Shown here piece after piece: positions 30,046-61,123 of a stretch of 64,000 nucleotides of DNA; within the stretch, counting starts at the first letter, position 1; every line of letters starts with the position of its first letter. A program made the translations under genes and the position numbers. The notes beneath the pieces are model-generated. The model saw nothing but the letters and a program-made list of their open reading frames with translations, was not told the origin of the DNA and ran no database searches. The DNA is from a virus: IMG/VR virus record IMGVR_UViG_3300009506_000012, positions 1 to 64,000 of that record; one strand, written 5' to 3'.

Positions 30046-30321
30046 ATGAGTGAAATGAATATAGCTTCTACAAAGATGAACGAAGTTCCATCAGCGCTTG
30101 AAAGGCTGGATACGGTAATCGAAGATCTTCTTTCACTTCCAGAAATATTCGAGGCTCAATTCGCACCTGTACTGAGTCCGGTCAAAGATTCCGAAACCGA
30201 GAAATCAGTGCCCGATGCTCGTTATGAAAGCGCACTGGCCAATGAGATCATGGAACGCGCCCGGAGAGTAAGGCTTGCAGGTGTTCGGCTTCACGCTATT
30301 CTTCAGCGTAATCAACTTTAG
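30046..30321 (+). CDS. Hypothetical helical protein
   Basis: 91-aa ORF abutting terminase, AAGGAG SD. Confidence 0.6.
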   Translation: MSEMNIASTKMNEVPSALERLDTVIEDLLSLPEIFEAQFAPVLSPVKDSETEKSVPDARYESALANEIMERARRVRLAGVRLHAILQRNQL

Positions 30322-34870: not shown

Positions 34871-36256
34871 ATGGCAGACCCCATCACTGATTATTATGCA
34901 GACAATCCGGTTGAGGTACTGGATAAGAACCAACGTACCTGGTACGACCCCGATGTGCTGCTACTGTTCAAAAATAGGTCACTCTTTACCAATGTTGTGA
35001 CCTATGCGCGAAATCTCGGTGACGTTCGCGCTACAAGCATGGTGGTAACCCAGATCCTGGAACCACATGCCAATTACAACGCCCTCGCAACCCGGCAGCT
35101 GTGGCTCCCGGCGATGCACATTGACTCTCGTTCTATCGAGATCACCTTCAGTCACCACGGTGGCAAGGTGGCCATGCACGATTATGATGAGCTGGTGACT
35201 TACTGGCAGACCAATGGAAACCCAGGCCTGCGCGTCATCCTCAATCGTGTCCTCGGTCAGAACATTGTTGATGTCCATGACTTCCTGGCCCGTAACGCTT
35301 TGCTGTACGGCGCTTTGGCACAAACCGGTTATGTGTATTACGCCGGTTCTGCAACCAACTTTTCCGATCTTGTCTCAACCGATTCGATGACCCCTGATAT
35401 CTGTATGGAAATCCAGCTGGGTATGAAGTACCGTGAAGTCGCCGGCGCTCTCAATCCGGATGGCTCTCCCGGCGCTGTGGTGTGCTACACCACGCCTGGT
35501 GTGATTTATGAATTCCAACAGGATCCAGACTGGGTTGAGGTTGCAAAATATGCGGATCCGGCTCGCTTGTTCCGCTATGAGGTTGGCACCTACAAGAATG
35601 TGCGTTTTGTTGAAAATACGCGCCTGACCCTGTTCAACTGCGGCACGATTGAATTCCAGGCCGCAATCAGCGCGGCTGCACATGCCGGTGATGGTGCGCC
35701 CAATCCTTCTACGACCAAGGTCGATGGTACCTATATGGTCGGTCAGACTACAGCTGGAATCGTGAACTACATTCAGCTTGATACGCCCATCACTGGAACG
35801 ATCGCTGATAACCTGGCTGTCAATGACATTCTGACCATTCACACCTCTCGTACCAGCACTTTCAACGTAACCAATGGCGTGAACCCATTCGATGGCACCC
35901 TGCACAATCGCCGTCTGGTCGAGATTGATGAGGCCAATGGCCGGCTTATCTTCGATAAGCCGATCATGATGGACTTCGCAACTGACCTGGGTGGTGGCGT
36001 TTATGGATACGTGACCAAAGGCTTCCATATCCACTCGAGCATCTTCATTGGTGCCCCGCAGGGTATTGTCGCTGGCCTGGCCGCGCCTATCCGTCTGCAC
36101 ACCCCGCCCCCCATCGATGACCTGGAAGCGATTTATCGTTTCTCATGGAATGATCGTATGGGCTATCAACCATATGCCCCAGAGGTGTATGAGGTTGTGT
36201 TTAGCGCTGGTTCTGTCCGGTTCAAGGGCAAGATGGGCGCTGCTGCTGGATCCTAA
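34871..36256 (+). CDS. Major capsid protein
   Basis: Position; LFRYEVGTYKNVRFVEN (N4 gp56-like motif); ends AAAGS. Confidence 0.9.
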   Translation: MADPITDYYADNPVEVLDKNQRTWYDPDVLLLFKNRSLFTNVVTYARNLGDVRATSMVVTQILEPHANYNALATRQLWLPAMHIDSRSIEITFSHHGGKVAMHDYDELVTYWQTNGNPGLRVILNRVLGQNIVDVHDFLARNALLYGALAQTGYVYYAGSATNFSDLVSTDSMTPDICMEIQLGMKYREVAGALNPDGSPGAVVCYTTPGVIYEFQQDPDWVEVAKYADPARLFRYEVGTYKNVRFVENTRLTLFNCGTIEFQAAISAAAHAGDGAPNPSTTKVDGTYMVGQTTAGIVNYIQLDTPITGTIADNLAVNDILTIHTSRTSTFNVTNGVNPFDGTLHNRRLVEIDEANGRLIFDKPIMMDFATDLGGGVYGYVTKGFHIHSSIFIGAPQGIVAGLAAPIRLHTPPPIDDLEAIYRFSWNDRMGYQPYAPEVYEVVFSAGSVRFKGKMGAAAGS

Positions 36257-37473: not shown

Positions 37474-38556
37474 ATGGCTACAACTGCTCAGGCCGGGATT
37501 TTTGGATGGGGTCCTCAAAGCGCCATGGAATCTGCCGCAACGCAGTATTGGCGTCACAAGGCCACAAATATCGATCTCGGTATCTTAGACGATATCAGGG
37601 TCGGACCGCTTGAAATTGGTTCCGGCCCATTTCCCACGTTCCCGTACAAGGCCGGTTATGTGATCGGCGGGGGCGTGGATATGCAGCCTCGTCTGGAGGA
37701 TTCTCTAGGCTGGCTGTTGTACGCGCATCTGGGTTCTCACAGTGTCGGTGCGGCTGTTGATGGGGTTTATCCTCACACGTTCGTGCCTGATACTGACCCG
37801 TCATTCGTGCGCTGGCTGTCTTTGCGCAAGTACATTCCTCAGAAGGAATCAGACCCGGCTACTGACCTCGGTGAACTTTATACCGACTGCAAACCAGTCA
37901 ACCTTGGCCTGACCCTGCCTAACGATATGCCCATTACGGCACGTTGGGACTTCATGGGACGTTCCTTCACCCTGGTTGACGACATCACGCCGTGGACCTG
38001 GGAAAATGCCGCGTATGAGGACTGGCAGTCCATTCCGGTAGGTTGTGAAACCGGTGGCGACATCCAGTTTACCGGTGGCGATCTATCCGGGCTGTCCGTT
38101 CCTGTGGTACGTGCGCAGGTTGCTTTCGGCAATCAGAACCTGGATATCCGTCAAGAAAAGGTGTATGGCTCACCTGAACTAGAGGACATCACCATCATTC
38201 AGCGTCAGTTGACCTTCGATGTAACGATCAAGTGGAATGATCCCTCGATCTATCGAAATATTCTGACCCTGCTTTCCAACGGTACTAGCTGGTCATCCCG
38301 TCCTTTGACTGGTTCACTGGATATCAAGACCGTAGGTACTGCATTAGCCGGTTCGTCCACTACACAGAAATTCGAGCTTGATATTACTGCCGATGAAGTC
38401 ATGTGGCAGATGAACGGCCCAATCACGATGGCCGCTGGTCAGGCAATCATGATGCGGTTCACTGGAACTGCATTGGAGCCTTCCAGTGGTGACTATGCAA
38501 CATTCACGTTGTATAATGAGGTGGCTGATTACGCTTGGCCTTCTGCGGGCTCTTAG
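37474..38556 (+). CDS. Major tail tube protein
   Basis: Beta-rich, YPHTF, C-terminal FTLYNEVADY; ends SAGS. Confidence 0.8.
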   Translation: MATTAQAGIFGWGPQSAMESAATQYWRHKATNIDLGILDDIRVGPLEIGSGPFPTFPYKAGYVIGGGVDMQPRLEDSLGWLLYAHLGSHSVGAAVDGVYPHTFVPDTDPSFVRWLSLRKYIPQKESDPATDLGELYTDCKPVNLGLTLPNDMPITARWDFMGRSFTLVDDITPWTWENAAYEDWQSIPVGCETGGDIQFTGGDLSGLSVPVVRAQVAFGNQNLDIRQEKVYGSPELEDITIIQRQLTFDVTIKWNDPSIYRNILTLLSNGTSWSSRPLTGSLDIKTVGTALAGSSTTQKFELDITADEVMWQMNGPITMAAGQAIMMRFTGTALEPSSGDYATFTLYNEVADYAWPSAGS

Positions 38557-38577: not shown

Positions 38578-38609
38578 GGCCTGGGTGGGTTCCACGACCT
38601 GCCCAGGTC
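38578..38609 (+). terminator. Hairpin after tail tube gene
   Basis: GGCCTGGGTGGGTT-CCAC-GACCTGCCCAGGTC; no U-tract. Confidence 0.45.
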
Positions 38610-38640: not shown

Positions 38641-39336
38641 ATGACAACTAAATTCGCAATCATCGCAGGCCCCAGAACCGGAAGCAGTACGATCCAAGTC
38701 TTTCTTGAAGATCTGGGGGTTTTTGTTTATAGAGAACCATTTAGACCCGAGAAAAATATACATCCATATCCGGATACTCTCAATGAGATTTATTTCAAAA
38801 AGAACGCAGTTGGATTGAAGCATGTTTACACTCATGTCAACATTGAGGAAAATATCCGAATGGTTGAATGGCTTTATCAGAGAGGCATTACTACTGTTCT
38901 TCTGACGCGCAGGAATAAATTTCACCAGGCGGTCAGTCTTTTGATTGCCAAAAAACTGAATATCTGGGCAGTCAAACCTGATGTCATGGCGGCGCTTGAA
39001 TACAGGAATGTTGAAAGTTTTGAAATCTCGATCAGCGAGATTGAAAAGTTTATTGAATATGCTGAAACGATTGAAAGCGCTATTATGGGTATCCATATTC
39101 CCGACTATCAGATTTTTCAGACATTGTATTATGAAGCCTATTTCAATCAGGACTCTGCCAGGGCATTGACCAATGCAAGTCAGCTTGTTCGGGCGCTGGG
39201 TATCACAGCACCGGATTACATCGCTCCAATGATCCAACAGCATTTTGCGCCAGGAAGAAAACAGAACACCGAAGCTATCTATAGATTGATTTCTAATCGT
39301 GCTGAAATTGAAGAACATTTCGGAGCAAAATTATGA
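38641..39336 (+). CDS. PAPS-dependent sulfotransferase (Stf0-like)
   Basis: 5'-PSB loop AGPRTGSS, 3'-PB LTRRNKFHQAVS, YYE. Confidence 0.85.
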   Translation: MTTKFAIIAGPRTGSSTIQVFLEDLGVFVYREPFRPEKNIHPYPDTLNEIYFKKNAVGLKHVYTHVNIEENIRMVEWLYQRGITTVLLTRRNKFHQAVSLLIAKKLNIWAVKPDVMAALEYRNVESFEISISEIEKFIEYAETIESAIMGIHIPDYQIFQTLYYEAYFNQDSARALTNASQLVRALGITAPDYIAPMIQQHFAPGRKQNTEAIYRLISNRAEIEEHFGAKL

Positions 39337-39899
39337 CAGACAAGGTTATTGTCGATCTTGGAGGAGAGGGGCATTACCAAAATGGCACCGTAACGGTCAA
39401 CATCAATCCCGAATCAGGTAGCGACATCATATGTGATATCACGGCGCGTGGCCAGGAGCTGCACAGATACTTTCCTTATGGGAGTGTGGACATGTTTACC
39501 TGTATCCATACTCTTGAACATCTTGACCCGGCTGATGTTCCTGAAAGTCTGCTTTACTGGAAATCCATTCTGAAAGATGGAGGCCGGTTATTGGTTATCG
39601 TTCCGGACCTGAAGCAGTTATGGCAGGATGTAATGAATGAAATTGTTTCCGAAGATGTTGCAATCGCAATCACATTTCGTAATAATTTCAATGGAAAATT
39701 TGAATACTGGGACACCCATAAATGGGGCTGGACACGTAAAACTTTGCGCCGGGATATGGCATCCTGTGGTTTCAAAGTCATTGATCCTGAACGACCATTT
39801 TCGAAAGATTACATCTTCGATGATTACAGCTTTAGCTACACCGGTGATGTGCATCATTATGTTATTCCAAATTTGCGAGTGATGGGGTTGAACAAATGA
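39333..39899 (+). CDS. Class I SAM-dependent methyltransferase
   Basis: VDLGGEG, HTLEHL, LKDGGRLLVIVPD. Confidence 0.85.
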   Translation: MTDKVIVDLGGEGHYQNGTVTVNINPESGSDIICDITARGQELHRYFPYGSVDMFTCIHTLEHLDPADVPESLLYWKSILKDGGRLLVIVPDLKQLWQDVMNEIVSEDVAIAITFRNNFNGKFEYWDTHKWGWTRKTLRRDMASCGFKVIDPERPFSKDYIFDDYSFSYTGDVHHYVIPNLRVMGLNK

Positions 39900-40663
39900 A
39901 TGAATATCTTGAGAAGTTTCACCTGCAATATTTTCTGGAACACAAAAGAGAGAATCGCTATTGGTGGTTTTTGAGGAATCAGTTTATGCCACCTGTGTAT
40001 ACTACCTTGGATGAACCTGAATTCTTATTGCTGATGGAGTGGTTTCGAGAAACAGACAAGAGAGGTGTTGCCGGGGAATGTTCTGTGCCTCTCATCTCTG
40101 CTTTGCTTGGATTTATCGCCGGGTCCGGGATAGATGCAGTTGTACAGCTGGGTCATGCTTACGGATATTCCAGTCTGCTTATGGGCTGGATGCTTCGCAG
40201 AATGGGGAAAAAACATGCACTATTTTCAATCGATATCAATCCGGATGCAACTGCTTTTGCCCAACACTATATTGACAAGGCTGACCTCAATGAAGTTGTT
40301 GCGCTCCGTGTTGGCAATAGTGCTGACCCAAAGATGGTAGATCGTGCCAGGCAGTATTTTGGAAAAGAACCACAAATGATCTTCATTGACAGCAGTCATC
40401 AATACAAACATACACTGAATGAATTACGGCTTTATTACAATGCGCTTCCCAAGAATGGGATTATCTTTCTGCATGATATCTCTCGTTTTGCAACCAGGTT
40501 TGATAAAACAGGAAAGGGGGGAGTCATGAAGGCGGTCTGCGAGTTTGTTGAAACCAATCTTACTGAATCCGGTCTGTTCAATCGGCATATCGAAGGTAGC
40601 GACAGGGACGCGCCTTTGATTTTGTTGGATGGGTGTGGTCTGGGAGTGATACAGAAGTTATGA
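39896..40663 (+). CDS. Class I SAM-dependent methyltransferase (Methyltransf_24-like)
   Basis: VVQLGHAYGYS, SIDIN, IFIDSSHQY, GIIFLHD. Confidence 0.85.
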   Translation: MNEYLEKFHLQYFLEHKRENRYWWFLRNQFMPPVYTTLDEPEFLLLMEWFRETDKRGVAGECSVPLISALLGFIAGSGIDAVVQLGHAYGYSSLLMGWMLRRMGKKHALFSIDINPDATAFAQHYIDKADLNEVVALRVGNSADPKMVDRARQYFGKEPQMIFIDSSHQYKHTLNELRLYYNALPKNGIIFLHDISRFATRFDKTGKGGVMKAVCEFVETNLTESGLFNRHIEGSDRDAPLILLDGCGLGVIQKL

Positions 40664-42813
40664 ACAGTTTCGATTGTTTTGATACTCTGATTGGTCGAAC
40701 TTGCGTTGATCCTGTCAATATTTTCGAAATGGTTGGAAACGAGATTAGGGATCCGGATTTTGTCAAAAAACGGATTGCCGCAGAAAGATTCTTTCAGCGC
40801 AAAAAGGCTCCTTATACACTTGATACTATTTATAAACAGCTTGGCCAACCAGAGCTGGCTGAAATTGAATTCGGCTTCGAGCTTAAGAGTACATTCAAAA
40901 TAAAACGCTATGCAAAAATGCTTCGGGAAGATGACATTATTATTAGTGACATGTACCTGACTGAAGATCAGGTACGCTTACTTCTCGAGAAAGCCGGCAT
41001 TCATTTCGGCGGGAAGATATTTGTTAGCAATTATGGAAAGTTTTCTGGAAACATTTGGAGAACGGTCAAAGAGCAGAGTCACAAGATCGAATTTCACCAT
41101 GGGGATAATTCTTTCACAGACTTTGAAAGTCCAAGAAAACACGGTATTCGTGCAATCAGGGTCACTGACACAAAACTGAACAAGATCGAAAAGCTGTATG
41201 CCGATACGCTTCCGGAACTGGGTGCCTGGGTGCGCAACAATCGGCTTCGGTATATCGTGGACGAGCGCAAAGAATTCTTGACGTTTATGCAAAATCAGTA
41301 CAACATGCCGCTGTTGTGGAGTATCTGTCAGGAACTTGATCACTATCACAATGTGTATGATTTATTATTTATGTCCAGAGATACCCAGCTTCTGCACCGC
41401 ATGTACACGACCCTGGTTCCGGACGCGAGAGCTGAATATATCTATATCAGCCGAGATACTTTGCGAGGTGACAGTCAGTCTTATTTCGAATATTTGAATT
41501 CGAAGTTAACAAACAGATCTATACTGGTTGACATGGCATCCTCTTGTGGATCTTTGAAAGAATCTCTACCTCATCTTCAGGTAAAAGAGCCCAATGTGTT
41601 TACAGCTGTTTTTTTACCTGTGCCGTTCAAGGTCGATCTTGGCCCAATCCATTGTTTTGCGATGACAACCAATACCCAGATACAAATCAACAATACCTAT
41701 TTGGAGATGTTGAATTATGCAGACCATCTTCATGTGGCTGATGTTGTTGACGGAAAACCTGTATTCGATCTTCCTGGTGAATATGACATGGAAAAGGTCA
41801 AAGCTTACCATCGTGCTTTCAACCTGATGCTTGAAAATATTCCCAACCGTATAGTTGATGCAAAACCAGTATTCTTCCATGCACTAGCTGAAATCCAGAA
41901 GAACAAAGACAGAATCGGCAAAGAGTTTCCGAATCATGTTCCTATCGAAATCAAGCATAAAAAAACCATAAAGCAGGAACGCGCCAAAGACAATGTGATT
42001 GTGATCGGAGCTATCGCTAATTATTCCTGGACAAACATAGAACCATGGTGGAAATCTTTGAAGGCAACCGGTTTCGATGGGGATATACATATGCTGTGCT
42101 ACAACATTGGAGGCCAGTCAATTCGGTACATGGAACGTAGAGGCATTCAAACACATGTCAGAAAGTTGACCGGGAAACAGATTGTGATTGATCGCTTTCG
42201 TGACCTGGCTACGCTTCTGGATGATATCGATCCGGATACCTGGATTGTTTTTCCGGATGTTGGGGATATCGTATTTCAGTACAACCCGAGACACTACCTC
42301 GAATCTGTATCAAAAGATATTGTGGTGACGCATGAAGGTGTTCTTTTCAGCGGAAACAAGTGGATGCTGAATAACCTCTATGAGAGCTTTCCAAAATACG
42401 CTGAAGGTCTGAAGGATAAGTTCTTCTTCAATGCTGGCTCCATAGCTGCTAAAGCTGGAATACTTTCGCAAATGTCAGAACACATCTACAAACTATGCTT
42501 GGAAAATCAGAACGCCACCAGTCACGACCAGACCGCCATGAACATCCTGCTTCACAATAACCCTGTTTATCGAAAGAAAACATTATTTTTGAGTCCCAAT
42601 GATCCATGGTGTTTTTGCGGAGCTTCAAGTATATTTGCACGACCCGAAGATGCCAAGAATTATTTGAGCGATCCGGTTACAGTTCAGAACGGAATTTGCT
42701 ATTCGCGCCCTAATGTAAAGACCTGCATGTTTCATCACTACACACGAAACAAAAATATTGCCAGGCAGGTGATAACCCAGGTCAATCGCAGATTTGTAAA
42801 TTCAAGACGGTAA
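40660..42813 (+). CDS. HAD phosphatase / phosphoribosyltransferase-like / GT-A glycosyltransferase fusion
   Basis: SFDCFDTL, ISDMYL, HHGDN...D (HAD); FMSRD, LVDMASSCGS; C-terminal FPDVGDIVFQYNP, FNAG, HDQ, HHY; start at ATGA overlap 40660. Confidence 0.8.
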   Translation: MNSFDCFDTLIGRTCVDPVNIFEMVGNEIRDPDFVKKRIAAERFFQRKKAPYTLDTIYKQLGQPELAEIEFGFELKSTFKIKRYAKMLREDDIIISDMYLTEDQVRLLLEKAGIHFGGKIFVSNYGKFSGNIWRTVKEQSHKIEFHHGDNSFTDFESPRKHGIRAIRVTDTKLNKIEKLYADTLPELGAWVRNNRLRYIVDERKEFLTFMQNQYNMPLLWSICQELDHYHNVYDLLFMSRDTQLLHRMYTTLVPDARAEYIYISRDTLRGDSQSYFEYLNSKLTNRSILVDMASSCGSLKESLPHLQVKEPNVFTAVFLPVPFKVDLGPIHCFAMTTNTQIQINNTYLEMLNYADHLHVADVVDGKPVFDLPGEYDMEKVKAYHRAFNLMLENIPNRIVDAKPVFFHALAEIQKNKDRIGKEFPNHVPIEIKHKKTIKQERAKDNVIVIGAIANYSWTNIEPWWKSLKATGFDGDIHMLCYNIGGQSIRYMERRGIQTHVRKLTGKQIVIDRFRDLATLLDDIDPDTWIVFPDVGDIVFQYNPRHYLESVSKDIVVTHEGVLFSGNKWMLNNLYESFPKYAEGLKDKFFFNAGSIAAKAGILSQMSEHIYKLCLENQNATSHDQTAMNILLHNNPVYRKKTLFLSPNDPWCFCGASSIFARPEDAKNYLSDPVTVQNGICYSRPNVKTCMFHHYTRNKNIARQVITQVNRRFVNSRR

Positions 42814-42814
42814 T

Positions 42815-42831
42815 GCTCCACATTGTGGAGC
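42815..42831. promoter_or_regulatory. GCTCCAC-N-GTGGAGC palindrome, copy 6
   Basis: GCTCCACATTGTGGAGC just after a stop codon. Confidence 0.7.
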
Positions 42832-42839
42832 TGATTAGC

Positions 42840-43907
42840 ATGAGCGCCTACAATCCTCCAAGACTTGTTTCCAAAGCATACGATAGACCTGTTGACATAC
42901 TGGCTACCAGGCCGCATTTTGTTGACCATATCGCTCCTGTATGGAGGCACCTAGAAAATCGAGGTGGCTTTTATGTTCCTGAAGTATTGTTAGATTATGC
43001 TAAAACCAAAGTACCTGAAGCCGTAGGGGTAAAGCCAGTTGGCAGAAGCGATAAGCTGAATATCAGGCCTCCCGAAAAAAATGTGTACTTTACCTGCGCT
43101 TATGGGGATTTAGAGAAAGGCATGATTACTGACCTGAAACGGGTTTTTATCTTTATGGAACACGGAGTCGGGTTAGTGTTTCCGGGAAATCCTCACTATG
43201 CCGGGAGTGTTGGCCTTCGAAGGCGTGTTCATTTCTTTCTTGCGCCAAATCAGAATATTCATGATAAGACCTGGACCACTTTTCCAGAAGCACCGCAAGC
43301 TATTGTTGGCACCCCAAAGATGGATAATGTTCCAACAGATATGCCGATCAACCGGGATGACCCGTTGATTATTATCTCATTTCACTGGGATGGAAGGAAG
43401 GTGGCCAGGGAAGCGGCGAACGCATATCCACATTTCAGAGAGATTCTTCCGGAAATTGCAAAACGATATCACTTGGCCGGCCATGCTCATCCACGTATCG
43501 CAAACTACTTCGAAAGAGTGTATAATGAATTAGGCATTGAGTTCATTCGTGATTTTGATGAAGTCATGCGCAGAGGGGACCTTTATCTAAATGATGCCAG
43601 TTCAACAGCATATGAATTCGGCGTCACTGGGAAACCAGTCATCTTACTTAACTCGCCCGGTTACCGGCGTAACATAAATTTTGGAATCCGATTTTGGCAA
43701 TACACAGATTGGGCTATTCAGGTTGATGAACCTGGCCAGCTCATTTCTGCTATAGAACAAACACTACATAAACCCTCACATGAACAGAAACAGAAACAGA
43801 TGGTAGCAGACCTCTACCCGTACCATGGGCAGAGTGCAAAGCGTGCTGCTGATCAAATAAACAGATTTCTGAACATGCGAGGAACCAATGCCATACAAGA
43901 TACCTGA
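42840..43907 (+). CDS. TagF-like CDP-polyol phosphotransferase / GT-B transferase
   Basis: MEHG, VGTPKMD, HAHP, DLYLNDASSTAYEFGVTGKPVI parallel TagF motifs; start 42813 or 42840. Confidence 0.75.
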   Translation: MSAYNPPRLVSKAYDRPVDILATRPHFVDHIAPVWRHLENRGGFYVPEVLLDYAKTKVPEAVGVKPVGRSDKLNIRPPEKNVYFTCAYGDLEKGMITDLKRVFIFMEHGVGLVFPGNPHYAGSVGLRRRVHFFLAPNQNIHDKTWTTFPEAPQAIVGTPKMDNVPTDMPINRDDPLIIISFHWDGRKVAREAANAYPHFREILPEIAKRYHLAGHAHPRIANYFERVYNELGIEFIRDFDEVMRRGDLYLNDASSTAYEFGVTGKPVILLNSPGYRRNINFGIRFWQYTDWAIQVDEPGQLISAIEQTLHKPSHEQKQKQMVADLYPYHGQSAKRAADQINRFLNMRGTNAIQDT

Positions 43908-44388
43908 TGTTGTTGAAACCGAATTCAGACTCGAGGAATTAGATTCCAGAGAGAATATTCCTGATGAAGAAGCCACAATGATTATGGTCAAGACTGCTTC
44001 AGTGGCTGAAAATTCAAAACGATCCCAACTGTTTTCAAAATACGTGCAGGAAATTCCAAAAGATGATGCAGAACCAGAACGCATTATTTATAACTTCCCA
44101 CTGTATACGCTTATGCAGAAGGAAACCTTTCTGACCCTGGTAGGGTGCAATATCCAATTCCCAACTGGAAAGAGTGATAATGAAGGTAATCCGGAGCTGA
44201 AGCCTTTGTTTAGATTCCGTAAGACTCCCCGTGGAAACGAACTGAATATGAGTGAATTGGAATTCAATAAAGCCTGGGGGATGCTTGACGATGATGTTGC
44301 CGCCGAGATCCATTCCAAAGTTTTAGAAGTCAATCCACACTGGATATTCCAGAATGTCGGAGGTAACACGGACCTGGGGGAAGGCTAG
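43888..44388 (+). CDS. Tail assembly chaperone (G-like)
   Basis: Upstream of tape measure; ends at slippery GGGGGAA. Confidence 0.75.
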   Translation: MPYKIPDVVETEFRLEELDSRENIPDEEATMIMVKTASVAENSKRSQLFSKYVQEIPKDDAEPERIIYNFPLYTLMQKETFLTLVGCNIQFPTGKSDNEGNPELKPLFRFRKTPRGNELNMSELEFNKAWGMLDDDVAAEIHSKVLEVNPHWIFQNVGGNTDLGEG

Positions 44389-44672
44389 TATCCGCAGAGC
44401 TACAAGGTCTAAAGGCTGCTTTGTGGGATTACTTTGGCCAAGCAAATGAACGAGCAGAAGGTATAAAGGTAACAGAAGAAGAACGTGTAGACAAACCAAA
44501 AGCACTGACCAGATACGAACAAATACAAGAACTGCACATTCCATATGTTGATGGTGGCCTTATGGATCAACCTTACTTATGGATGCAGCAGCATGGCGTC
44601 ATCAAAAGTTTCCTCGTTGAATGGAACGCCACGCAAAAAGCATTAGCACAACTTTCAGCGCAAGGACAGTGA
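44376..44672 (+). CDS. Tail assembly chaperone -1 frameshift extension (T-like)
   Basis: G GGG GAA at 44376-44382; -1 frame open to 44672; GGLMDQP motif. Confidence 0.75.
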   Translation, partial: GGRLVSAELQGLKAALWDYFGQANERAEGIKVTEEERVDKPKALTRYEQIQELHIPYVDGGLMDQPYLWMQQHGVIKSFLVEWNATQKALAQLSAQGQ

Positions 44673-44673
44673 T

Positions 44674-47600
44674 ATGCCCTACACGGTTCCAAATCCTACA
44701 ACCGATCAATTCAGGACTTATCTTGAAAACCTTCTGAAAACATTTGATAAAACCTATCAGGTTCAATATGTGCCTCCACAGAAGGATGCCGGCAATAGCG
44801 ATATTGAAGGAACGGATTTTTTCAACATCACAAAAAAATCCTCCAACAATGCTGGTGTTCTCAAGACTAACCTCAAGATAAACTTGGGACATGAGTCTCG
44901 TTTTAGAACGACCTACGGTGGACAGACTCCCCAGCAATTTGAACGTGCCCCGGAAATCCTAACGGGTTCCGGGCAAAGTGCTTATACCGTTGGTGGCTCC
45001 TGGGCTTCAGTGGCCACGGTTGTCGATCAGCCTGGCGGGAAATCTGATATTGATATCAGGCATGATTTGCGCTCTCCAATAGAAAGCCTGGCCACTTTGA
45101 TCAGCACTGGTTTTTCAGATGTCGAAAAAGAAAACCGGTTCAATCCCGGAGCTGTTACGGGTGATGTAACCAGCAAGATTATGAATCTGCTATCCACAGG
45201 TTCCAGTGAACACAGTGATTTTGCGGTCCCTGCCGGCGCTTTGATGACAACAACTGGAATTGATGTAGATGCTGTTCGCAGAAAAGCCGCTCAAGCCATT
45301 CAGCTCGTAAATAGCTACGACCCTACTGGCACCGCAGAGGTAGGGCAGTTTGCACAACGAGAGGCGATAGCCAAGGCGCGTGAAAACATGATGCGTCTTA
45401 GCATTCCTGTACCTGGCCGGGGAGGAAAGCCAATTGATTCCTTTTTCAAAGAAGCTGGGTATGCTCCCGATCGCGCACAGGCTGACCGCCTTGTCGCATT
45501 ATCACAGGCTTCTCGGGTTGTCCGTGATGCTCTTGGTCAGCCAACAGATACTGAAATCTATCTGCCTTCTCCGAAGATAGCCAAACACATGACTATTTTG
45601 AGTTCTGGTCGTCAACAAGCATCTTTACTTGGTGAAGATTATCAACCTATTGCGCCAAAGATGATCACAGGACGTGTACCAACATCCGGATACAGAATGA
45701 CAACCGCTGATGTTGGAGGCAGAATTCCTGAAAAGTCTCTAGTGCTTGGAACAATGTTTTCGCCTCAATATCCTATTCCGGGTGCAGGAATGTATTTTCC
45801 GGAAACTGTAGATGCCAATGTGAAATCAGGTGGCTACAAGGCTACTCAAAGTTTTGGAGTAACTCGGAATGTCAAGGATCTTCTTACCGATAAAACCCAG
45901 CTTAATTTACAGCAACAAACCGGAAATGTAATCCCATCTTCTCTGAATTATGACGTTTTCTCAATGCGTACTAAAGAGATGAAAAAGTCTGATCCGGATA
46001 TTATGTTACAGCAACGAGCAGGCACACATTCTTTTGCCGTTGGAAATCAGCAATTGCGTATTCCCAGATATTACACGGCTGAAGGAATCGGAGCCAGCTA
46101 CGATAAGCAGATGCTTCGCAAGAAACAACTTCAAGAGGTGACCCCGGCAGAGATTGAAGCACTTTCAAAACGCCTGGGCGTGAATGTTGTTCCAGACGCA
46201 ACCATTGAAGAAGTCCTCTTAGAGATGGAAGGCCAAAAACTAGTTGGTGGCAAGTTTGCCATTGAGGGTGTCAAATCAGATATCACCCCTTATACCGGCA
46301 CTCCAACTTTTTCAGCTGGTGGCAAGGAAAGAGCCATCAGCGCAGTAACCTGGGAATCCAAGCAAATGCTGGAAACCTTTACAGGTAGCCTTGGGGCTAT
46401 TTCTCCTACAGCCCAATATGGAATCCTGAATGAATATCAAAAATCGCTTACGGCTTCAGGGGATACGGATATGGCCGCGAACGTTCGTGCCGTCATCAAA
46501 CAGCAAAAGGCATTGAGGAGAGAGGATCCTACAGCCAGGCTTGATCTTCAAGCAGCTGCAAATCAAATAGCAGGAACTGCAACGGATGCACCTGTACATG
46601 GATTGTCCAGAGATATCTTTCAGCGTGTATTTCTGGGAGGCTCTAAGGTACAAGATTTTGCAGGTATGAATGAGGCAGACCTATCTGCGTTTGCCCAATC
46701 TGATCTGAATGTTCGCAATCTGAAAAAATTCGGTATGGGATGGGTATCTCCCGAAATGAGCAATCCCATAACAACCATGTGGGACAGAAGCCAGGTCGAG
46801 GCTTTGTTCACTGGATACCGTCAGGGAAGTAATGTACCTGAAGCTGAATTACGTGCGCGGTTTGGGCGTCAATATGGTTTTGATTTTTCAAATGCAAAAG
46901 GTGACCAGATTGCACAGACGTTCAGGCCTAGTGGGTTTTACATGCCAGCGATTGCCGGTCCATCTGTGGAGTTTTCCGGAGGCGGCACACTTGGTTCCGA
47001 AGAAACGCAAATCCTTTCAGCGATTGCACCAGGCTTTGCAAACCGTCTGGGCGCTAATGCAGAAGGACTGACCCGGCGTGATCCTGTGCGTTGGGCTCAA
47101 CGTCAGATCGCACATATCGCCGCTACTGAAATGGATCGGGGCGAGGGTAAGTACACCAAGATTGATAATGCGCTTCAGATTGGCACAGAACAGGCGACCA
47201 AAATGTGGGCAGATCCGGAGTTTCGTGCCTTGCTTGGAGATGAGGCCGGTGATTTAGCTGGAATGAAACGCTTTGAAGAAAAGCTGAAAAGTTTCTTTCC
47301 GGGCTCAGAGGATTTGAACCGCAGGCCTATTACCTTTGAAGCTGCCCCAGGTCGTTACCTTCCATCAACCAGGGCAATTTCTGCTTTAGCTACTGAAAGT
47401 TCGGCAACTATGCGAGGCGGCATAAGAACAGGTGAGGATGTTACACGTTCTTGGAATATGTTCCAGAGCGCTTTTTCCCAGGCTGTCACTTCGCAGATCA
47501 ACGAGGACCCGACTGGTTTGCTTGAGGGTACCCAGAATCTAACATCGCATTTTATGAGACAGTTTGGCCTCCCTGAAGGCGGCAAGCGTGATGTTATCAA

Positions 47601-53600: not shown

Positions 53601-53709
53601 AGATTCAAAACCCTCTTTCAAAGAAACCAAAGAGCAGACCATTGTTGTGCAGATTGGCAACGAGGAAATCAAGCGCTTTGTTGTCAGAACAGTAGAGGAT
53701 GACTTGTAA
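44674..53709 (+). CDS. Tape measure protein with N-terminal two-barrel RNA polymerase-like region
   Basis: After chaperones; C-terminal coiled coil and MAEGG...VGENGPEL tape-measure motif; GGKFAIEGVK (K527, K534), RWP (R1065), DFDLD (1117-1121); P/Q/T linker near aa 1660-1740. Confidence 0.8.
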   Translation: MPYTVPNPTTDQFRTYLENLLKTFDKTYQVQYVPPQKDAGNSDIEGTDFFNITKKSSNNAGVLKTNLKINLGHESRFRTTYGGQTPQQFERAPEILTGSGQSAYTVGGSWASVATVVDQPGGKSDIDIRHDLRSPIESLATLISTGFSDVEKENRFNPGAVTGDVTSKIMNLLSTGSSEHSDFAVPAGALMTTTGIDVDAVRRKAAQAIQLVNSYDPTGTAEVGQFAQREAIAKARENMMRLSIPVPGRGGKPIDSFFKEAGYAPDRAQADRLVALSQASRVVRDALGQPTDTEIYLPSPKIAKHMTILSSGRQQASLLGEDYQPIAPKMITGRVPTSGYRMTTADVGGRIPEKSLVLGTMFSPQYPIPGAGMYFPETVDANVKSGGYKATQSFGVTRNVKDLLTDKTQLNLQQQTGNVIPSSLNYDVFSMRTKEMKKSDPDIMLQQRAGTHSFAVGNQQLRIPRYYTAEGIGASYDKQMLRKKQLQEVTPAEIEALSKRLGVNVVPDATIEEVLLEMEGQKLVGGKFAIEGVKSDITPYTGTPTFSAGGKERAISAVTWESKQMLETFTGSLGAISPTAQYGILNEYQKSLTASGDTDMAANVRAVIKQQKALRREDPTARLDLQAAANQIAGTATDAPVHGLSRDIFQRVFLGGSKVQDFAGMNEADLSAFAQSDLNVRNLKKFGMGWVSPEMSNPITTMWDRSQVEALFTGYRQGSNVPEAELRARFGRQYGFDFSNAKGDQIAQTFRPSGFYMPAIAGPSVEFSGGGTLGSEETQILSAIAPGFANRLGANAEGLTRRDPVRWAQRQIAHIAATEMDRGEGKYTKIDNALQIGTEQATKMWADPEFRALLGDEAGDLAGMKRFEEKLKSFFPGSEDLNRRPITFEAAPGRYLPSTRAISALATESSATMRGGIRTGEDVTRSWNMFQSAFSQAVTSQINEDPTGLLEGTQNLTSHFMRQFGLPEGGKRDVIKKMMGSEIGVASGHYAFWNELKQNEVYASKEKYMEAIRKELSAQGLDTPERPLSNQEVEQVYNMIAGLPSEVGTAPNDVRTKGLPGVVARWPIVAGEESMLGMRFVTPEHLQRSGRQAPVEAGMGNLHWRIGVGPSSIMQGDFDLDYMLGLMGLTGTRDESGKLDVSFAAYNRNGRLGKDISALVNRTQQMSYETIQRILYPSKNAQQQFDPIFQAFQDRDKTGTLGPMQQVARNLIGEQFGKSGWQPYGHLLDSVATYGGAKMMMGTSYNFTRALEAAAGVGGWSTEGIMQGRRGRAQIYQPHLDLQTSQAAPMVRMYQSSFLAEGKGGKLGLGFGTDVAGYGLQFMKNAGKIMNLSEDNTSRIITMLAGSAITPTTAGELPSPEMLGYAFSPEEGRVNTAPEDMQTSLDLFTKWKNAERHPENAAEYNKRADYEEAYMRTTGLADVLQAPYNMEGTTDERATAMQHTLSQWMKYNYYGTKEGRETALQGNFITAMFSKSYAKKQEKEPGWTPPLDFRTSKLGSRMMGKANIQAPLFNMMKGGLSSGRTLRRLLNSIGQTSGLTSWATGNLQALGFGTDETIFPQSQVSASGNVRSTGPNGEPIIVSPEMERLWAKDWARMKNKGLYEGNFGQYIEERKADLARLNTSFAGKPVDQARVNPETKDIEGGFENIPMVDFDAINNAQPEPEQTQTTTTQPEQTTAKPQQKTPKPQQPSSTQKPQPGGTQPPNKQPPGGGTSTPVSPTTPPSGTPPPRAPQDASQNTKFPGLPANSIPTEQAQEYIGKFREYMPNITQAAGAIQSELGAITGATPGPMGVYEAMAQLPEEQRMEILKKYQEPARQAQELMGLAKKVYPNLEKNVIDPAVLRQFGMSGADLRIMSEDTLLTNNPVGQNLVDLGGLTGVPGFETLKKRGGTTAASGQVSANIAQIHFQELGEITKKLTENFENLSKGQIKHSDALKEETKLLEQREQARQKQALSEKAAPLVEQGLLEPEITATKRGKPQISYKRTDKPIPQEMYKASQAYDEQLLKTEGLGGTEGQDRLIGGVRPSFMRRVLGGFGLMYMRSLGNIITGGLGYGQQERTNMEQVFGASAGGMAGIGYTPQNQAQVLQNRMALGGQAYNPMLGLQMARAQSPLLQDISAAGGAGLGTYALLQQAALWGGEGSIFQQIANGGLSAFGGRLNIGAGTVVGGAVGASLLAQGYAKSQDTEGLAYRWGTGNAFSKITGLTDTLGRIGAGQAFTGDIYQRGATYRMLQENLQRPEGMTTQGVMDWVTEQGLGGQKYVDAGTPEGQAWYGQATQKLLLDQNPEFAPETIAATYQFMQRNQMNLKDFGTIASQFQTGYTEESVSSMLKGFGMSMGQQLSQTENWAGGNAPTNLGVAYMQTLGMINQNNAPQFQAGLEYMGQLGFAPQIMQQQQGLSNQEMVNQVLQWGGQGAMQGGLYAQRAQAYQQGAFMGWNVQAPEAPPENLTPEQFGQGMYESQKQSQKMMQIEQIANQFSSNFGWSGEQRQGFLGDMESFYKSGRFNAYYADVLGGASQMNPYAMTQLYTQQQPGGALAGIGPQIQPWQVTKDIWGPGAGELAGKAVNLPAFTVSGGTHPQFQALSEMLGPDFMQQLLGTDAGNAFVNGYQMEGTNMPAVAGLMGYQMQQADKQWDLRQAQMGISDRGNQLQMEYLPKIWNIQDQMRDLGYRHQMFQFGQQEKQIAMQAGQFYENIGLSEYQSQLQRGWTQQDWAFNSETRAMQHGWRVEDFEEQRRFMTGRQRRLAERQMERENITYGREGEQIDRQQERQKELWALEDERFQMQKDHYEEQRQMQEESLKENKKYYEQNFELQKKLTDLQRELTMKQLELQKESLELQKQIAEEQHKMQQVQQAIQLLMLQNQTKLEDSQQIFGGISEEMRTLFEDWADVIGNGGSGSGGYTNYTVYGSGGASGTINSGVRPEGSSGGMQMAEGGDFWVGENGPELLSVGMDGPTTRMRGRIQPTKYDPWGSTAIDSKPSFKETKEQTIVVQIGNEEIKRFVVRTVEDDL
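50550..50567. promoter_or_regulatory. GCTCCAC-N-GTGGAGC palindrome, copy 7 (intragenic)
   Basis: TGCTCCACTAGTGGAGCA identical to copy 3. Confidence 0.6.
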
Positions 53710-54140
53710 TGGCTACTAATCGATATATCACTTTACAAGACAGTGAACTATCCGTGGTGAAACGCTTCAAATCCATAGGGCTTCGAACTCCATGGCAACG
53801 CACCGACAATTTCAGAGTCACGCTTGGTGGTGATATTGATAAGGTTGCTGGAACTATCTTGTATGCTTATCAATATGTCTTGCGTGTTCCTGCTGAAGTT
53901 GATGATCTGAACTACGGAACGCTTGACGATCTAAAGTCCTTGTTTGTTTTGAACAATCCGAATGGTACTCCGAACGATATCATTACACTGATTGATCACT
54001 ATGGAGATTCCCACACGGTCCTTTTCAACGAGGATGTTACCCCGGAGCCTTTGACAACTATGCTTGAAGGCTACAATGCCTGGTTTATTGTGCCAATTTC
54101 TTTCGTTGAAATATTTTTAGCCGGAGGAAGCGGTTCATGA
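53709..54140 (+). CDS. Distal tail protein-like
   Basis: 143 aa directly after tape measure; ends AGGSGS. Confidence 0.65.
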   Translation: MATNRYITLQDSELSVVKRFKSIGLRTPWQRTDNFRVTLGGDIDKVAGTILYAYQYVLRVPAEVDDLNYGTLDDLKSLFVLNNPNGTPNDIITLIDHYGDSHTVLFNEDVTPEPLTTMLEGYNAWFIVPISFVEIFLAGGSGS

Positions 54141-58255: not shown

Positions 58256-60554
58256 AAAGAATACATCGCTAAGTCGTAAGATCAATGACAGCATCAAGCA
58301 AGGAAAGCTCATGCCAGCCGTGGTCGTGGACGTATTCAATAAACGTGCGACTATTCAGCTTTCAGGAAATGGCGCACTACTTCATAACCTGCGTGTGATT
58401 GGCGGGCCAGTAGATAAACTGCAAAAAGTAGATGTAGACTTCACGACCCCGGAACCGACTGTGGTGGCGATCAGCAAAGAATGGGTGACTAGCGATGAAC
58501 TCGAGAAAGCACTGAAGGCGCTTACCGCAGACAGTATCGAGCAGAAGTTGCGCTTCGATATTGTTCTTTTTTCCGGAGGTGGCGCACAGGACCAATACCC
58601 CCCAACCGCCGAAGGCCTCTCGAGCGCAGTTGATGCTGCCGGCAACGGGGATGTCATTTTTCTTCCGGATGTTGATATTGAGATCGACCTGACAATTCCT
58701 GAATATGTGACCTTGCGAGGAGTGAGCAAGCGGCAATCTATTATTCGTGGAAGCATCACCTTCAGCTCCGGGGTATCTTTTGAAAACCTGTGTTTGCTTC
58801 AGGGAAGGTTCACCAGTGAAGAAGTCGTAGGAATTACAGTCCCGGCTGTCACAAGTAAAACCTTCATCCGTCATTGTGAGATACATGGCTATAACTGCTC
58901 AGATGGGAACGCGGTAGCGGTTGACCTGGCGGCTGGTGCCAAGTTAGAGATCGAGCATTCCGTAGTGATCGGTGACGCGGCCAATGCAAGCGCCTGGGCT
59001 GTTCGCGGTGTAGCTGGAAGCACGTGCAGAATCAGTAATGGACAGGTGTTTGGAAAAACTGATGTGTATACCGGTACAGGGATTTATGAATATTCAAACC
59101 TTGAATTTGAAAGCGAGATTGCAAGAGGTTGTATTGTTAGTGGGGAATTAAGGAACGGGGCCTCTGTCTCTAATTCGGTATACAACACTCTGGTTCCTGC
59201 GGGTGCTATTCTGGATCCAAGTGGTATTGTGACAGAACCTTATTTCAAGGAAATTTACGATAGTGTTCTCAATCTGTATGTTGGAGGCACACCTGTTCTT
59301 CGCGTGGGAGACTACATTTATTTCATCGATATGGATGGGTTTGCAGGTTCAAACGGGCAAGTCATAGTTACTGAATATGATATCGTCAATGATACTTCTA
59401 AGAGTCTCAACGCAGGGACTTACTATACTCTTACGGGCAGGGATATAATCTGTGCTGGGGACAACAGGAAAATCTATGCCGCTTTCAGATCTACCTTCAG
59501 CACAGTCGAAATTGATGTGATCGAGTGTGATTTTGAAAATGATACAGTTACCAATATAAAAACATGGGAAGATGGAGATGAACCAGGGTTCTACGACAAC
59601 CCACGGGGCATCTACTGCCTTCAAGATACTTCGGGCAATTTGCATCTTGTCCTGTTTGGACAGTGGGAAAACACAAACAACACAAATGTGAACACGATAA
59701 CCTGCTCCGGTGTTTACATCCGTCATTATGATTTTGCGGCTGATGCCTGGGTGACTAAAACACTTGAATACAATTCTAACTATTATGGGATAAGTGCAAA
59801 CTGGTATTTTCCTCCTGGCATGTGGGAAGATAAATTCCTTCTTTTTCCAACCCCGTCAACATTCGTTGCTGAGGATGCCGCTGGCAACGATCTGAATAAC
59901 AATTACGATATACCTCCTGATGGACTATACGTGATGAGTGTTCCCATCTATGACATCAAAAACAAAACATTCACACAACTCTATAGAGAGGTCACAGGCA
60001 CTGATGACTGGACAGGCCAACCAAGTCTTGATATCGCAGCTGTCAGTCCTGCCACGGGTGAAGTCATCATAGGCTGGCAAAATGGCGATGGAAGCAACAC
60101 CTATGATTCAGTCCATATATACAGGTGGGATATTGATACCGGCAACATCACTCACATTCATGAGACTGCTGATACTGGTACCCTAAGTTTCATGAACTCT
60201 GACACCGAACTCTATATTTTTGAATACACCAGCTACAGTCCTTATGTCGGTATTCTTAGAAAAGCCTCTGACTGGTCAATTCTCAGCTCTAATTTTTCGG
60301 TATCTCCTTTTGGGGTACGTATTGTGGATGATCAGGACCGGTTCTGGAGATATGATGAGACTACTGAAAAGGTATTTGGCACCAAGGTCACAGATGATAG
60401 CGATCAAATATCTTTTGATGCACCTAAAAGTTTATTGTCTGACGGACAGGCTCAAGATTATTTCTTTATTCTTCTCATGGGTGACTGTATTGCAATCTGG
60501 ATAAAAGAAGGCATATCTACTACTAATAGAGTACATATCTGGTTGGTGAAATGA
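58248..60554 (+). CDS. Tail spike or receptor-binding protein
   Basis: AVDAAGNGDVIFL...VTLRG beta-helix start, then propeller-like region. Confidence 0.65.
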   Translation: MPKKNTSLSRKINDSIKQGKLMPAVVVDVFNKRATIQLSGNGALLHNLRVIGGPVDKLQKVDVDFTTPEPTVVAISKEWVTSDELEKALKALTADSIEQKLRFDIVLFSGGGAQDQYPPTAEGLSSAVDAAGNGDVIFLPDVDIEIDLTIPEYVTLRGVSKRQSIIRGSITFSSGVSFENLCLLQGRFTSEEVVGITVPAVTSKTFIRHCEIHGYNCSDGNAVAVDLAAGAKLEIEHSVVIGDAANASAWAVRGVAGSTCRISNGQVFGKTDVYTGTGIYEYSNLEFESEIARGCIVSGELRNGASVSNSVYNTLVPAGAILDPSGIVTEPYFKEIYDSVLNLYVGGTPVLRVGDYIYFIDMDGFAGSNGQVIVTEYDIVNDTSKSLNAGTYYTLTGRDIICAGDNRKIYAAFRSTFSTVEIDVIECDFENDTVTNIKTWEDGDEPGFYDNPRGIYCLQDTSGNLHLVLFGQWENTNNTNVNTITCSGVYIRHYDFAADAWVTKTLEYNSNYYGISANWYFPPGMWEDKFLLFPTPSTFVAEDAAGNDLNNNYDIPPDGLYVMSVPIYDIKNKTFTQLYREVTGTDDWTGQPSLDIAAVSPATGEVIIGWQNGDGSNTYDSVHIYRWDIDTGNITHIHETADTGTLSFMNSDTELYIFEYTSYSPYVGILRKASDWSILSSNFSVSPFGVRIVDDQDRFWRYDETTEKVFGTKVTDDSDQISFDAPKSLLSDGQAQDYFFILLMGDCIAIWIKEGISTTNRVHIWLVK

Positions 60555-61123
60555 TGGCCGCAATTCCGCTGAAAGGTGATCGGTCTGCTAGAGATGATGT
60601 CAACTATCCCTCTCTGCATTCCAAAGGAATAGAGGATGGAAATCAAACTATCCATCTTCCTCCTGGGACAAGTGTAGGTGACATAGCTTATTGGGATGGA
60701 ACCAAATGGACAACTCAACCTCTGACAGGCAGTCAAGGAGTCGTCCCACCTATCATGACCCTTGGCACCTATGAAGGATCCATACAGGTTGCTACCTCAC
60801 CACTTGGAATTTACAACCGCTATGGGGAAAGCCGTGAGATCATAGAAGTCTTTTTATCCGTGTCTGCCGCTCCGGTCGGAGCAGATATTCTTGTTGATAT
60901 TCTTGTCGGAGGTGCTTCTATCTTTGGAGCAACCAAAGCCACTCTTGCAGCTGGTCAAACTACTGGTGTGATTACATCTTTCCTGGATCCTGTTTGGTTA
61001 GCCAACAGTAAGTTGGTTTGGGACATTACTCAAGTTGGTTCAAGCACACCTGGTTCCGACCTGGTTGTTCATATTCTGCATGAGAAATATTCAGTGCCTG
61101 GCTCTGGAGGCTCGGGTTCATGA
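60551..61123 (+). CDS. Minor tail or fibre protein
   Basis: GDIAYWDGTKW fibre motif; DITQVGSSTPGSDL; ends GSGGSGS. Confidence 0.7.
   Translation: MMAAIPLKGDRSARDDVNYPSLHSKGIEDGNQTIHLPPGTSVGDIAYWDGTKWTTQPLTGSQGVVPPIMTLGTYEGSIQVATSPLGIYNRYGESREIIEVFLSVSAAPVGADILVDILVGGASIFGATKATLAAGQTTGVITSFLDPVWLANSKLVWDITQVGSSTPGSDLVVHILHEKYSVPGSGGSGS

Follow-up and report, generated by a model that had tools for sequence, protein, structure and literature searches.

The window analysed here comprises the first 64,000 nucleotides (nt) of an 82,163-bp viral record in IMG/VR (IMGVR_UViG_3300009506_000012; direct terminal repeats, completeness estimate 100), and an exact terminal repeat of 144 bp was found in the full record. 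Between positions 38641 and 43907, five co-directional genes on the + strand encode, in order, P0001, a predicted carbohydrate-type sulfotransferase resembling NodH and Stf0 and dependent on 3'-phosphoadenosine 5'-phosphosulfate (PAPS) (231 amino acids (aa), 38641..39336); P0002, a small class I S-adenosylmethionine (SAM) methyltransferase of the Methyltransf_11/23 type (188 aa, 39333..39899); P0003, an O-methyltransferase of the cation-dependent type, similar to Methyltransf_24, CmcI and COMT (255 aa, 39896..40663); P0004, a fusion of a HAD domain, a phosphoribosyltransferase (PRT) domain and a GT-A domain (717 aa, 40660..42813); and P0005, a TagF-like polyol-phosphate transferase (364 aa, 42813..43907). 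We found that the TagF-like gene recurs in other phages together with structural proteins that end in Gly-Ser. From these sequence comparisons we consider it likely that the five genes form a cytoplasmic pathway with which the phage builds a glycan on its own structural proteins, at the serine of the C-terminal Gly-Ser.

The five genes are joined by three ATGA start/stop overlaps and one TAATG overlap, which agrees with the tight coupling described in the original prediction, a reading of the DNA that had proposed a five-gene glycan cassette for coating the virion. The P0005 open reading frame (ORF) also overlaps the next ORF (43888-44388) by 20 nt. Two of the starts deserve comment. For the fourth gene, whose longest ORF spans 40633-42813, the ATG at 40660 (MNSFDCFDTL, just ahead of the HAD motif) is more likely than the GTG at 40633. 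For the fifth, the second ATG, at 42840, is the likelier start. TagF-like homologues align starting from residue 10-28 of P0005, and a palindrome, GCTCCAC-ATT-GTGGAGC (42816-42832), separates the stop codon of the fusion from this ATG, with its right arm providing GGAG 9-12 nt ahead of the ATG.

Enzymes of the cassette

We examined the sulfotransferase assignment with a family profile and a structure model. The single P0001 sequence gave a sub-threshold Pfam match to Stf0, and its family is small, with 63 cluster representatives at E<=1e-3 among 1.84 billion. A profile of 39 of these 63 relatives (alignment A3) matched the lipopolysaccharide (LPS) sulfotransferase NodH (E 8.1e-19) and Stf0 (E 2.9e-7) in the PDB. 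In a fold search (VIA) with the AlphaFold (AF2) model (pLDDT 92.9), all 50 of the 50 matches listed were PAPS sulfotransferases (Z 10.7-12.0, residues 1-231). Across the family R12, G14, R90 and S99 are invariant and S15 is conserved in at least 90% of sequences; these residues occupy the positions expected for the two PAPS-binding motifs, for the 5'-phosphosulfate and the 3'-phosphate. Profile and model together confirmed the predicted sulfotransferase and showed it to be of the PAPS-dependent NodH/Stf0 type. The likeness to NodH and Stf0 covers the fold of the whole domain as well as the profile, but P0001 is phage-encoded, short (231 aa) and from a small family.

Both methyltransferases were also recognized. 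P0002 scored 21.3 bits against Pfam Methyltransf_11 (MT_11; cut-off 21.2) and E 1e-5 against MT_23, and its ESM Atlas neighbours were mostly viral MT_11 clusters (features 0.97, TM 0.78-0.80). P0003 matched MT_24 (E 7.4e-16), RMNT_CmcI (E 2e-9) and MT_3 (E 1.3e-6) in Pfam, and O-methyltransferases in the PDB (best E 8.7e-6). A PHROG search gave a weak 'DNA methyltransferase' match for P0003 and nothing for the other four cassette proteins, and an NCBIfam search of the cassette proteins gave no match above cut-off. With phmmer against the PDB, the single sequences of P0002, P0004 and P0005 yielded nothing or noise.

The alternative that these enzymes place sugar, phosphate or sulfate on phage DNA bases bears on the sulfotransferase in particular. 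Its fold is kinase-like, a 5-hydroxymethyldeoxyuridine (5-hmdU) DNA kinase appeared as a weak BFVD match (rank 44, E 8.4e-3), and DNA methylase-like proteins are encoded elsewhere in the phage. However, the strength of the NodH profile match and the invariant residues at both expected PAPS-motif positions point to sulfate transfer, none of 10 large early proteins scanned matched a base-hydroxymethylation or DNA-glycosylation family, and the relatives of the cassette enzymes act on carbohydrate chains. DNA modification would also leave the association of the TagF-like gene with Gly-Ser ends unexplained. We regard it as very improbable and rejected it, the kinase fold match being outweighed by the NodH profile.

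The fifth protein on its own falls below the Pfam cut-off for PF04464 (E 0.0019, 17.6 bits against 22.1). Its family contains 257 proteins at E<=1e-3, and when 33 sequences picked among the best 120 of these matches were aligned (alignment A2), 32 of the 33 matched PF04464 at E<=0.01, the best at 1.7e-10. The family profile matched Cps3D (E 4.3e-4) and TarL (E 3.5e-3), and the ESM Atlas neighbours of P0005 were PF04464 clusters (TM 0.71-0.84). H117 (in EHG) and H224 and H226 (in GHxHP) are invariant in the 33 sequences, and GHxHP aligns, by sequence alone, with GHH of Cps3D. In the TagF-like CroT domain of Bcs3, the Haemophilus influenzae type b (Hib) capsule polymerase, the catalytic histidines are H96 and H233 (PMC10299916). 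These family-level matches confirmed the assignment of P0005 to the TagF-like PF04464 family. With the wall-teichoic-acid and capsule polymerases TagF, TarL and Cps3D it shares PF04464, and the donor-side motifs of its family align with those of Cps3D and TarL; the phage forms differ in being catalytic cores of ~320-365 aa whose genes adjoin phage capsid genes. Longer TagF-like forms of ~590-620 aa, with an extra C-terminal domain, were also seen (L006-L021, L033, L042, L048 and L050). This domain is MT_24 in five of the 120 relatives listed, and the longer genes usually come after one for a protease-capsid fusion of 880-1040 aa whose last residues are ...EEAAS or ...EEPAS.

As a single query P0004 found no relative in viral contigs; a profile of alignment A1 (the query and 15 full-length proteins, out of 58 matches) did. 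The AF2 model built from these 16 sequences (pLDDT 89.9) contains a HAD phosphatase domain (residues ~1-200), a ribose-5-phosphate transferase domain of the type using phosphoribosyl pyrophosphate (PRPP) (~200-435) and a GT-A domain (442-717). Residues 1-435 superpose on Bcs3 382-969, which covers CrpP and CriT (VIA; Z 20.4, 421 residues aligned), and the family profile matched Bcs3 at E 5.2e-20 (positions 2-270 on 386-715). By its published domain map, Bcs3 consists of CroT (1-373), CrpP (374-591, a phosphatase) and CriT (592-1036, a PRPP-using ribose-5-phosphate transferase), and D386, S678-R679-D680, S707-R708 and R712 are tied to catalysis or PRPP binding (PMC10299916). In the profile alignment the FDxFDT motif of P0004 falls on the CrpP nucleophile D386, SRD (239-241) on S678-R679-D680 of CriT, and SR (264-265) with R269 on S707-R708 and R712; D5, R240, D241, S264 and R265 are invariant in 16 of 16 sequences. 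The same paper names E818 as a second ribose-binding acid and E874 as the proposed base of CriT (PMC10299916). D291 and E349 of P0004, likewise invariant, are candidates for these from spacing alone, as the profile alignment ends at 270.

The GT-A domain resembled the glycosyltransferase domain of LH3 (Z 18.6), mimivirus R699 (Z 17.5) and GlyE, LARGE1, GT6 and LgtC (~16), which makes it GT8/GT6/LH3-like, and D533 and D536 of its DVxD motif, an acidic metal/nucleotide-sugar motif, are invariant in 16 of 16 sequences. Taken with the model, the profiles confirmed the assignment of CrpP and CriT plus a fused GT-A domain to P0004, and of all three predicted Bcs3 activities to P0005 and P0004 together. 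A further match was PDB 7shg, the Thermobacillus composti polysaccharide ribofuranosyl transferase (E 7.7e-12 in Foldseek; Z 17.1 in VIA, though with a root mean square deviation of 13.3). It has the same two-domain architecture of HAD and PRPP-type ribofuranosyl transferase, but acts on bacterial polysaccharide and has no fused GT-A domain. On three contigs labelled GVMAG, for giant-virus metagenome-assembled genome (L085, L086 and L090), sequences related to the HAD domain and the beginning of the domain after it were fused to other C-terminal parts; residues 1-265 of P0004 match residues 2-295 there at 32-33% identity. Overall, the five enzyme calls of the original prediction were borne out by profiles and folds.

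Gly-Ser C-termini in loci with a TagF-like gene

In the window phage genome, 6 of 108 ORFs end in Gly-Ser (GS), all of them in the late + strand block at 34.8-70.1 kb. The first is the major capsid protein (461 aa, 34871..36256, ending ...KMGAAAGS; PHROG 1357 major head protein, E 3.4e-15). The second is the tail-tube-like protein that borders the cassette upstream (360 aa, 37474..38556, ending ...AWPSAGS), which matched PHROG 290 (E 1.1e-12) and, at 24.5 bits and under the cut-off of 27, Pfam Phage_tube_2 (E 2.4e-5). Two more are late proteins of the tail region, one of 143 aa (53709..54140, ending ...LAGGSGS; no family match) and one of 190 aa (60551..61123, ending ...PGSGGSGS). We propose these four, all encoded on the + strand, as acceptors. 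The remaining two ORFs, at 69139-70088 of the genome, are a 112-aa ORF ending in IQGS and, following it, a 202-aa HD_5-domain protein (69480-70088, E 5.6e-26) ending in GYTGS. In another viral locus, an HD_5 protein is encoded beside a TagF-like gene.

Related phages carry similar ends. Capsid homologues in L003 and L005 end in GS, the tail-tube homologue in L003/L004 (71% identity) ends in WPSAGS, and an L111 homologue of the 190-aa protein (47% identity) ends in GSYGSGS. Virus Rctr41k comes from a methane-oxidising/anammox enrichment and is represented by a partial genome. Four of its proteins end in GS: the capsid fusion, the major tail subunit, one of 128 aa encoded after the tape measure, and a further protein.

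TagF-like relatives were found on 136 IMG/VR viral contigs, and we surveyed the C-termini in 80 of these loci. GS was the commonest C-terminal dipeptide (71 of 1419 ORFs), ending 56 of 1217 distinct ORFs against 6.6 expected from the internal dipeptide frequency; Ala-Ser (AS) came second, with 18 against 7.3 expected. With identical ORF calling, 50 of 1098 distinct ORFs in TagF-like loci ended in GS, compared with 0 of 308 in viral loci found via the HAD domain without a TagF-like match and 3 of 702 in metagenome loci. The tagged protein families are unrelated to one another: major heads of the HK97 type (PHROG 10, Pfam Phage_capsid), heads of PHROG 544 and 1357, fusions of an S77 protease with a capsid, tail tubes of the lambda type and of PHROG 158, and the Hc1 head-closure protein. 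Among the members of these families encoded in the TagF-like loci, a terminal serine was present in 16 of 16 capsid fusions (as AS, GS, SS or PS), in 9 of 10 HK97-type capsids (GS) and in 7 of 7 Rctr41k-type tail proteins (GS, SS, TS or FS), and the tagged capsid gene often lies immediately upstream of the TagF-like gene.

As an outside control, we took 8 of 574 GenBank records with homologues of one tagged capsid and read seven (L194, unannotated and without an in-frame stop, was excluded). None of the seven homologues (33-42% identity; hosts Acutalibacter, Clostridioides, Faecalibacterium, Arthrobacter, Bifidobacterium and Microbacterium) ends in Ser. In two of these phages, FP_Lugh and Bbif-1, the FLT[AP]A stretch found ahead of the L049 tag (GSGS) is also present but the sequence after it differs, and we therefore read the tag as a short appendix.

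These results bear on a second alternative, in which the tags have nothing to do with the cassette and its enzymes remodel polymers of the host envelope (LPS-like, capsule or teichoic-acid), for instance to aid release or to exclude superinfection. All the characterised relatives (TagF/TarL, Cps3D, Bcs3, NodH and Stf0) do act on cell-surface glycoconjugates, and the donors must be supplied by the host. However, this alternative leaves unexplained the roughly tenfold, locus-specific GS excess on structural proteins and the adjacency to capsid genes. In addition, the genes are located in head or tail modules, and we detected no membrane-span-like or signal-like segment in any of the five cassette proteins. 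Envelope remodelling therefore seems to us quite unlikely. Modification of the virion is the better reading in this respect: tags of Gly-Ser, or of another small residue and Ser, on capsid, tail-tube and other virion proteins travel with the TagF-like gene across unrelated phages, and the virion-coating idea is to that extent supported by the comparative data.

Distribution and genomic setting

A tblastn search with P0004 and P0005 against 50,697 GenBank phage records returned Virus Rctr41k and one partial match in a faecal phage, and therefore no close mycobacteriophage relative of either protein. Rctr41k was the one record in this collection with a TagF-like relative, and it alone had a full-length relative of P0004; a megablast search with 10 kb against the phage collection gave no match. 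Rctr41k shares four of the five cassette proteins with the window phage at 37-45% identity and none of 17 other late proteins compared (4 of 22 tested). Their arrangement is different: the TagF-like gene is directly 3' of the capsid-protease fusion region, and the other three (MT_24, the sulfotransferase and a split fusion) are found ~9 kb away from it, upstream of the terminase. Among metagenome contigs, L107 carries the TagF-like gene, sulfotransferase, MT_24 and fusion, and L108 carries MT_24, sulfotransferase and fusion. Upstream of its terminase, portal and protease genes, L115 has the TagF-like gene and then a P0002-like methyltransferase, MT_24 and a split fusion.

The closest relatives of the window phage, L003/L004 (capsid 76%, tube 71% identity), have an insertion at the same site that consists of the TagF-like gene, an MT_24-like ORF and an ORF of 205 aa, with nothing more. 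In this lineage, then, the insertion site is kept, its content varies and the TagF-like gene is constant. Gene content across these phages indicates a widespread core of the TagF-like gene and the tags, to which the other four genes are added as a portable accessory module, seen in Rctr41k and a few metagenome contigs at various genome positions. The idea of a fixed five-gene cassette therefore did not hold. Nor is the position between tail tube and tail chaperone a conserved feature of the gene set, which lies upstream of the terminase in Rctr41k and L115. Around the TagF-like genes, 145 of 171 distinct neighbouring ORFs were scanned (150 were taken, less five long capsid-fusion ORFs), and methyltransferases predominated (MT_24, 12; MT_23, 11; FkbM, 5), alongside some glycosyltransferases (GT11, 5; GT7C, 5; GT2, 2) and head-module proteins; no cytidylyltransferase was among the 25 neighbour families listed.

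This distribution is relevant to a third alternative, that the TagF-like enzyme alone acts on the tags, the sulfotransferase, methyltransferases and fusion being neighbours by location only and modifying something else, for example a glycan of the host or a free one. L003/L004 keep the tags and the TagF-like gene without the four accessory genes, the three accessory genes of Rctr41k lie far from its TagF-like gene, and one complete phage of 128,867 bp (G002; L084/L195-L201) has a full-length fusion relative (32% identity). G002 has no TagF-like gene, and 0 of its 168 ORFs end in GS. Against this, the sets recur together in various orders (L107, L115 and four of five genes in Rctr41k), the window genes are translationally coupled, and HAD relatives occur fused to PF04464. 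In Bcs3, moreover, the CriT and CrpP parts and a TagF-like enzyme build one and the same chain (PMC10299916). We consider such a division of function unlikely.

Several observations weigh against a single glycan pathway directed at the tags. The lack of tags and of a TagF-like gene in G002 means that it is the TagF-like gene, and not the fusion, that the tags follow, and that the fusion is able to act on a different acceptor. Among TagF-like loci of at least 15 kb, 8 of 31 had no ORF ending in a small residue and Ser within 10 kb. One of these eight, a complete 115-kb record, has a 355-aa ORF ending in PIVGS 9 kb downstream of the TagF-like gene; in another, a complete phage of 88.7 kb with a TagF-like gene, 0 of 133 ORFs end in GS. 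The ORF calls of the survey were crude (longest non-overlapping), though C-termini are independent of start choice, and a good many of the loci are not independent of one another, as their samples are related. A search of sequencing runs for the cassette gave no RNA dataset. Finally, profiles PF01467 and PF12804 (cytidylyltransferase), PF01583 (adenosine phosphosulfate kinase) and PF13793 (PRPP synthetase) had no match in the whole 82-kb genome, while control genomes were positive, so that every donor must come from the host.

The late genes of the window phage are on the + strand and start at ~30 kb. From position only, a 539-aa ORF (30321-31940, +) was named putative terminase and a 542-aa ORF (32445-34073, +) putative portal, and an SU10-type adaptor is encoded between the capsid and tail-tube genes. 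Downstream, the cassette is bordered by two small ORFs of 166 and 83 aa (43888-44388 and 44421-44672, both +), which matched no family in Pfam/PHROG-type searches but have homologues in identical order in L003/L004. They are presumed tail assembly chaperones by position, so that of the two flanking genes originally named, the tail tube has a family match and the chaperone a positional label. An unusually long ORF of 3011 aa (44674-53709, +) follows in the tape-measure position. GC content is 0.43-0.45 across 38-44 kb against 0.48-0.51 in adjoining late genes, and this dip suggests that the cassette block was acquired horizontally.

A promoter and terminator scan of 36-45 kb gave 12 promoter-like sites, where 16.5 were expected, and 13 terminator-like sites, where 7.6 were expected; no convincing site was seen at either border of the cassette. 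A hairpin without a T-run, CCTGGG-N16-CCCAGG, was seen at 38580-38607, in the 84-nt gap 3' of the tail-tube gene; it may damp read-through into the enzyme genes. In the early arm, a 291-aa protein (16920-17795, -) contains a DnaJ domain (E 3.7e-22). The cassette DNA was present in three marine-sediment metagenome samples of one study, any one of which may be where the phage was sampled, and in a fourth run only at a 0.06 share.

A proposed pathway and its nearest counterparts

How the enzymes might work together is suggested by the activities of their relatives. In a first step, the TagF-like enzyme would move a polyol-phosphate (glycerol- or ribitol-phosphate, from a cytidine diphosphate (CDP)-polyol of the host) to the hydroxyl of the C-terminal Ser of capsid, tail-tube and other late proteins. 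We take this step as the priming one because the TagF-like gene is constant and adjoins tagged genes. The CH2OH of a C-terminal Ser, beside a free carboxylate, may mimic the anionic polyol terminus to which TagF enzymes normally add units. The CriT-like domain would then add ribofuranose-5-phosphate from PRPP and the CrpP-like HAD domain remove the 5-phosphate, as in the Hib capsule; if this alternated with the first step, a short ribosyl-polyol-phosphate chain could arise. The GT-A domain would add a hexose from a nucleotide sugar, the two methyltransferases would O-methylate the chain and the NodH/Stf0-like enzyme would sulfate it with host PAPS. The four accessory genes would in this way elaborate a glycan begun by the TagF-like core, leaving a polyanionic coat on head and tail.

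The steps after priming (ribosylation, dephosphorylation, hexose addition, methylation and sulfation) are proposed because relatives of the enzymes have those characterised activities, and their order and chemistry are inferred by analogy. WbdD caps chains in O-antigen synthesis, and it is a guess that the methyltransferase partners might act as chain cappers in a similar way. The predicted enzymology fits a glycan that is methylated and sulfated, phosphodiester-linked (a possibility in the original prediction) and contains ribofuranose. A stronger version, which we put forward tentatively and think somewhat doubtful as it stands, is that phages prime a polymer like teichoic acid or Hib capsule on the C-terminal Ser of capsid, tail-tube and other virion proteins, which the TagF-like enzyme would recognise by the free carboxylate, and that in the window phage the other four enzymes extend it to a methyl-capped, sulfated ribosyl-polyol-phosphate chain. 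If true, this would be a new class of protein modification and a cell-wall-like, polyanionic virion coat that is widespread in uncultured phages, given the 136 IMG/VR contigs.

The acceptor rule proposed here, that the protein ends in Gly-Ser, is portable. If it holds, it would define a new protein modification; sequence alone would predict which phages coat themselves and which of their proteins are coated; a small tag and its enzyme could serve as a pair for decorating capsids in the laboratory; and TagF-like/Bcs3-like enzymology would extend from lipid-linked polymers to protein acceptors. We speculate that a polyanionic coat could alter particle adsorption and host recognition in sediments.

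Phage-encoded modification of the virion has a precedent. A few mycobacteriophages modify their own capsid and tail-tube proteins with transferases and an O-methyltransferase that they encode, and this glycosylation weakens the neutralising antibody response, according to a paper that cites the work (PMC11600133). The window phage resembles Che8, Corndog and Myrna, the phages studied by Freeman et al. in 2023, in encoding transferases and an O-methyltransferase and in its proposed capsid and tail-tube targets. In Corndog the genes are reported to lie amid the virion genes, and attachment is reported to be near the C-termini of the proteins. The differences are that the core enzyme here is a TagF-like polyol-phosphate transferase and not an ordinary glycosyltransferase, that the proposed acceptor is a tag whose final residue is Ser, and that the cassette adds PRPP-dependent ribofuranosylation and a sulfotransferase. 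Our finding thus points to a chemistry of polyol-phosphate, ribofuranose and sulfate that is unlike the mycobacteriophage type and much more widespread.

With Bcs3 the phage cassette shares the TagF-like transferase, the HAD phosphatase and the PRPP-type ribose-5-phosphate transferase. In the phage, however, the set is split over two genes with the TagF-like part separate, the SH3b domain and C-terminal amphipathic helices are absent, the helical bundles of CriT are largely missing from P0004 (421 residues aligned over a 588-residue range), and P0004 has the additional GT-A domain. The acceptor differs as well: a lipid-linked capsule primer for Bcs3, a protein serine, as we propose, for the phage enzymes. 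In the open-access literature searched, no paper turned up that describes a TagF-like enzyme of a phage modifying the C-termini of capsid proteins, or a phage sulfotransferase directed at the virion. What is new in the window is the full Bcs3-like enzyme set, the fused GT-A domain and the sulfotransferase. The closest biology is mycobacteriophage virion glycosylation, and the closest enzymology is that of Bcs3 and the wall-teichoic-acid polymerases.

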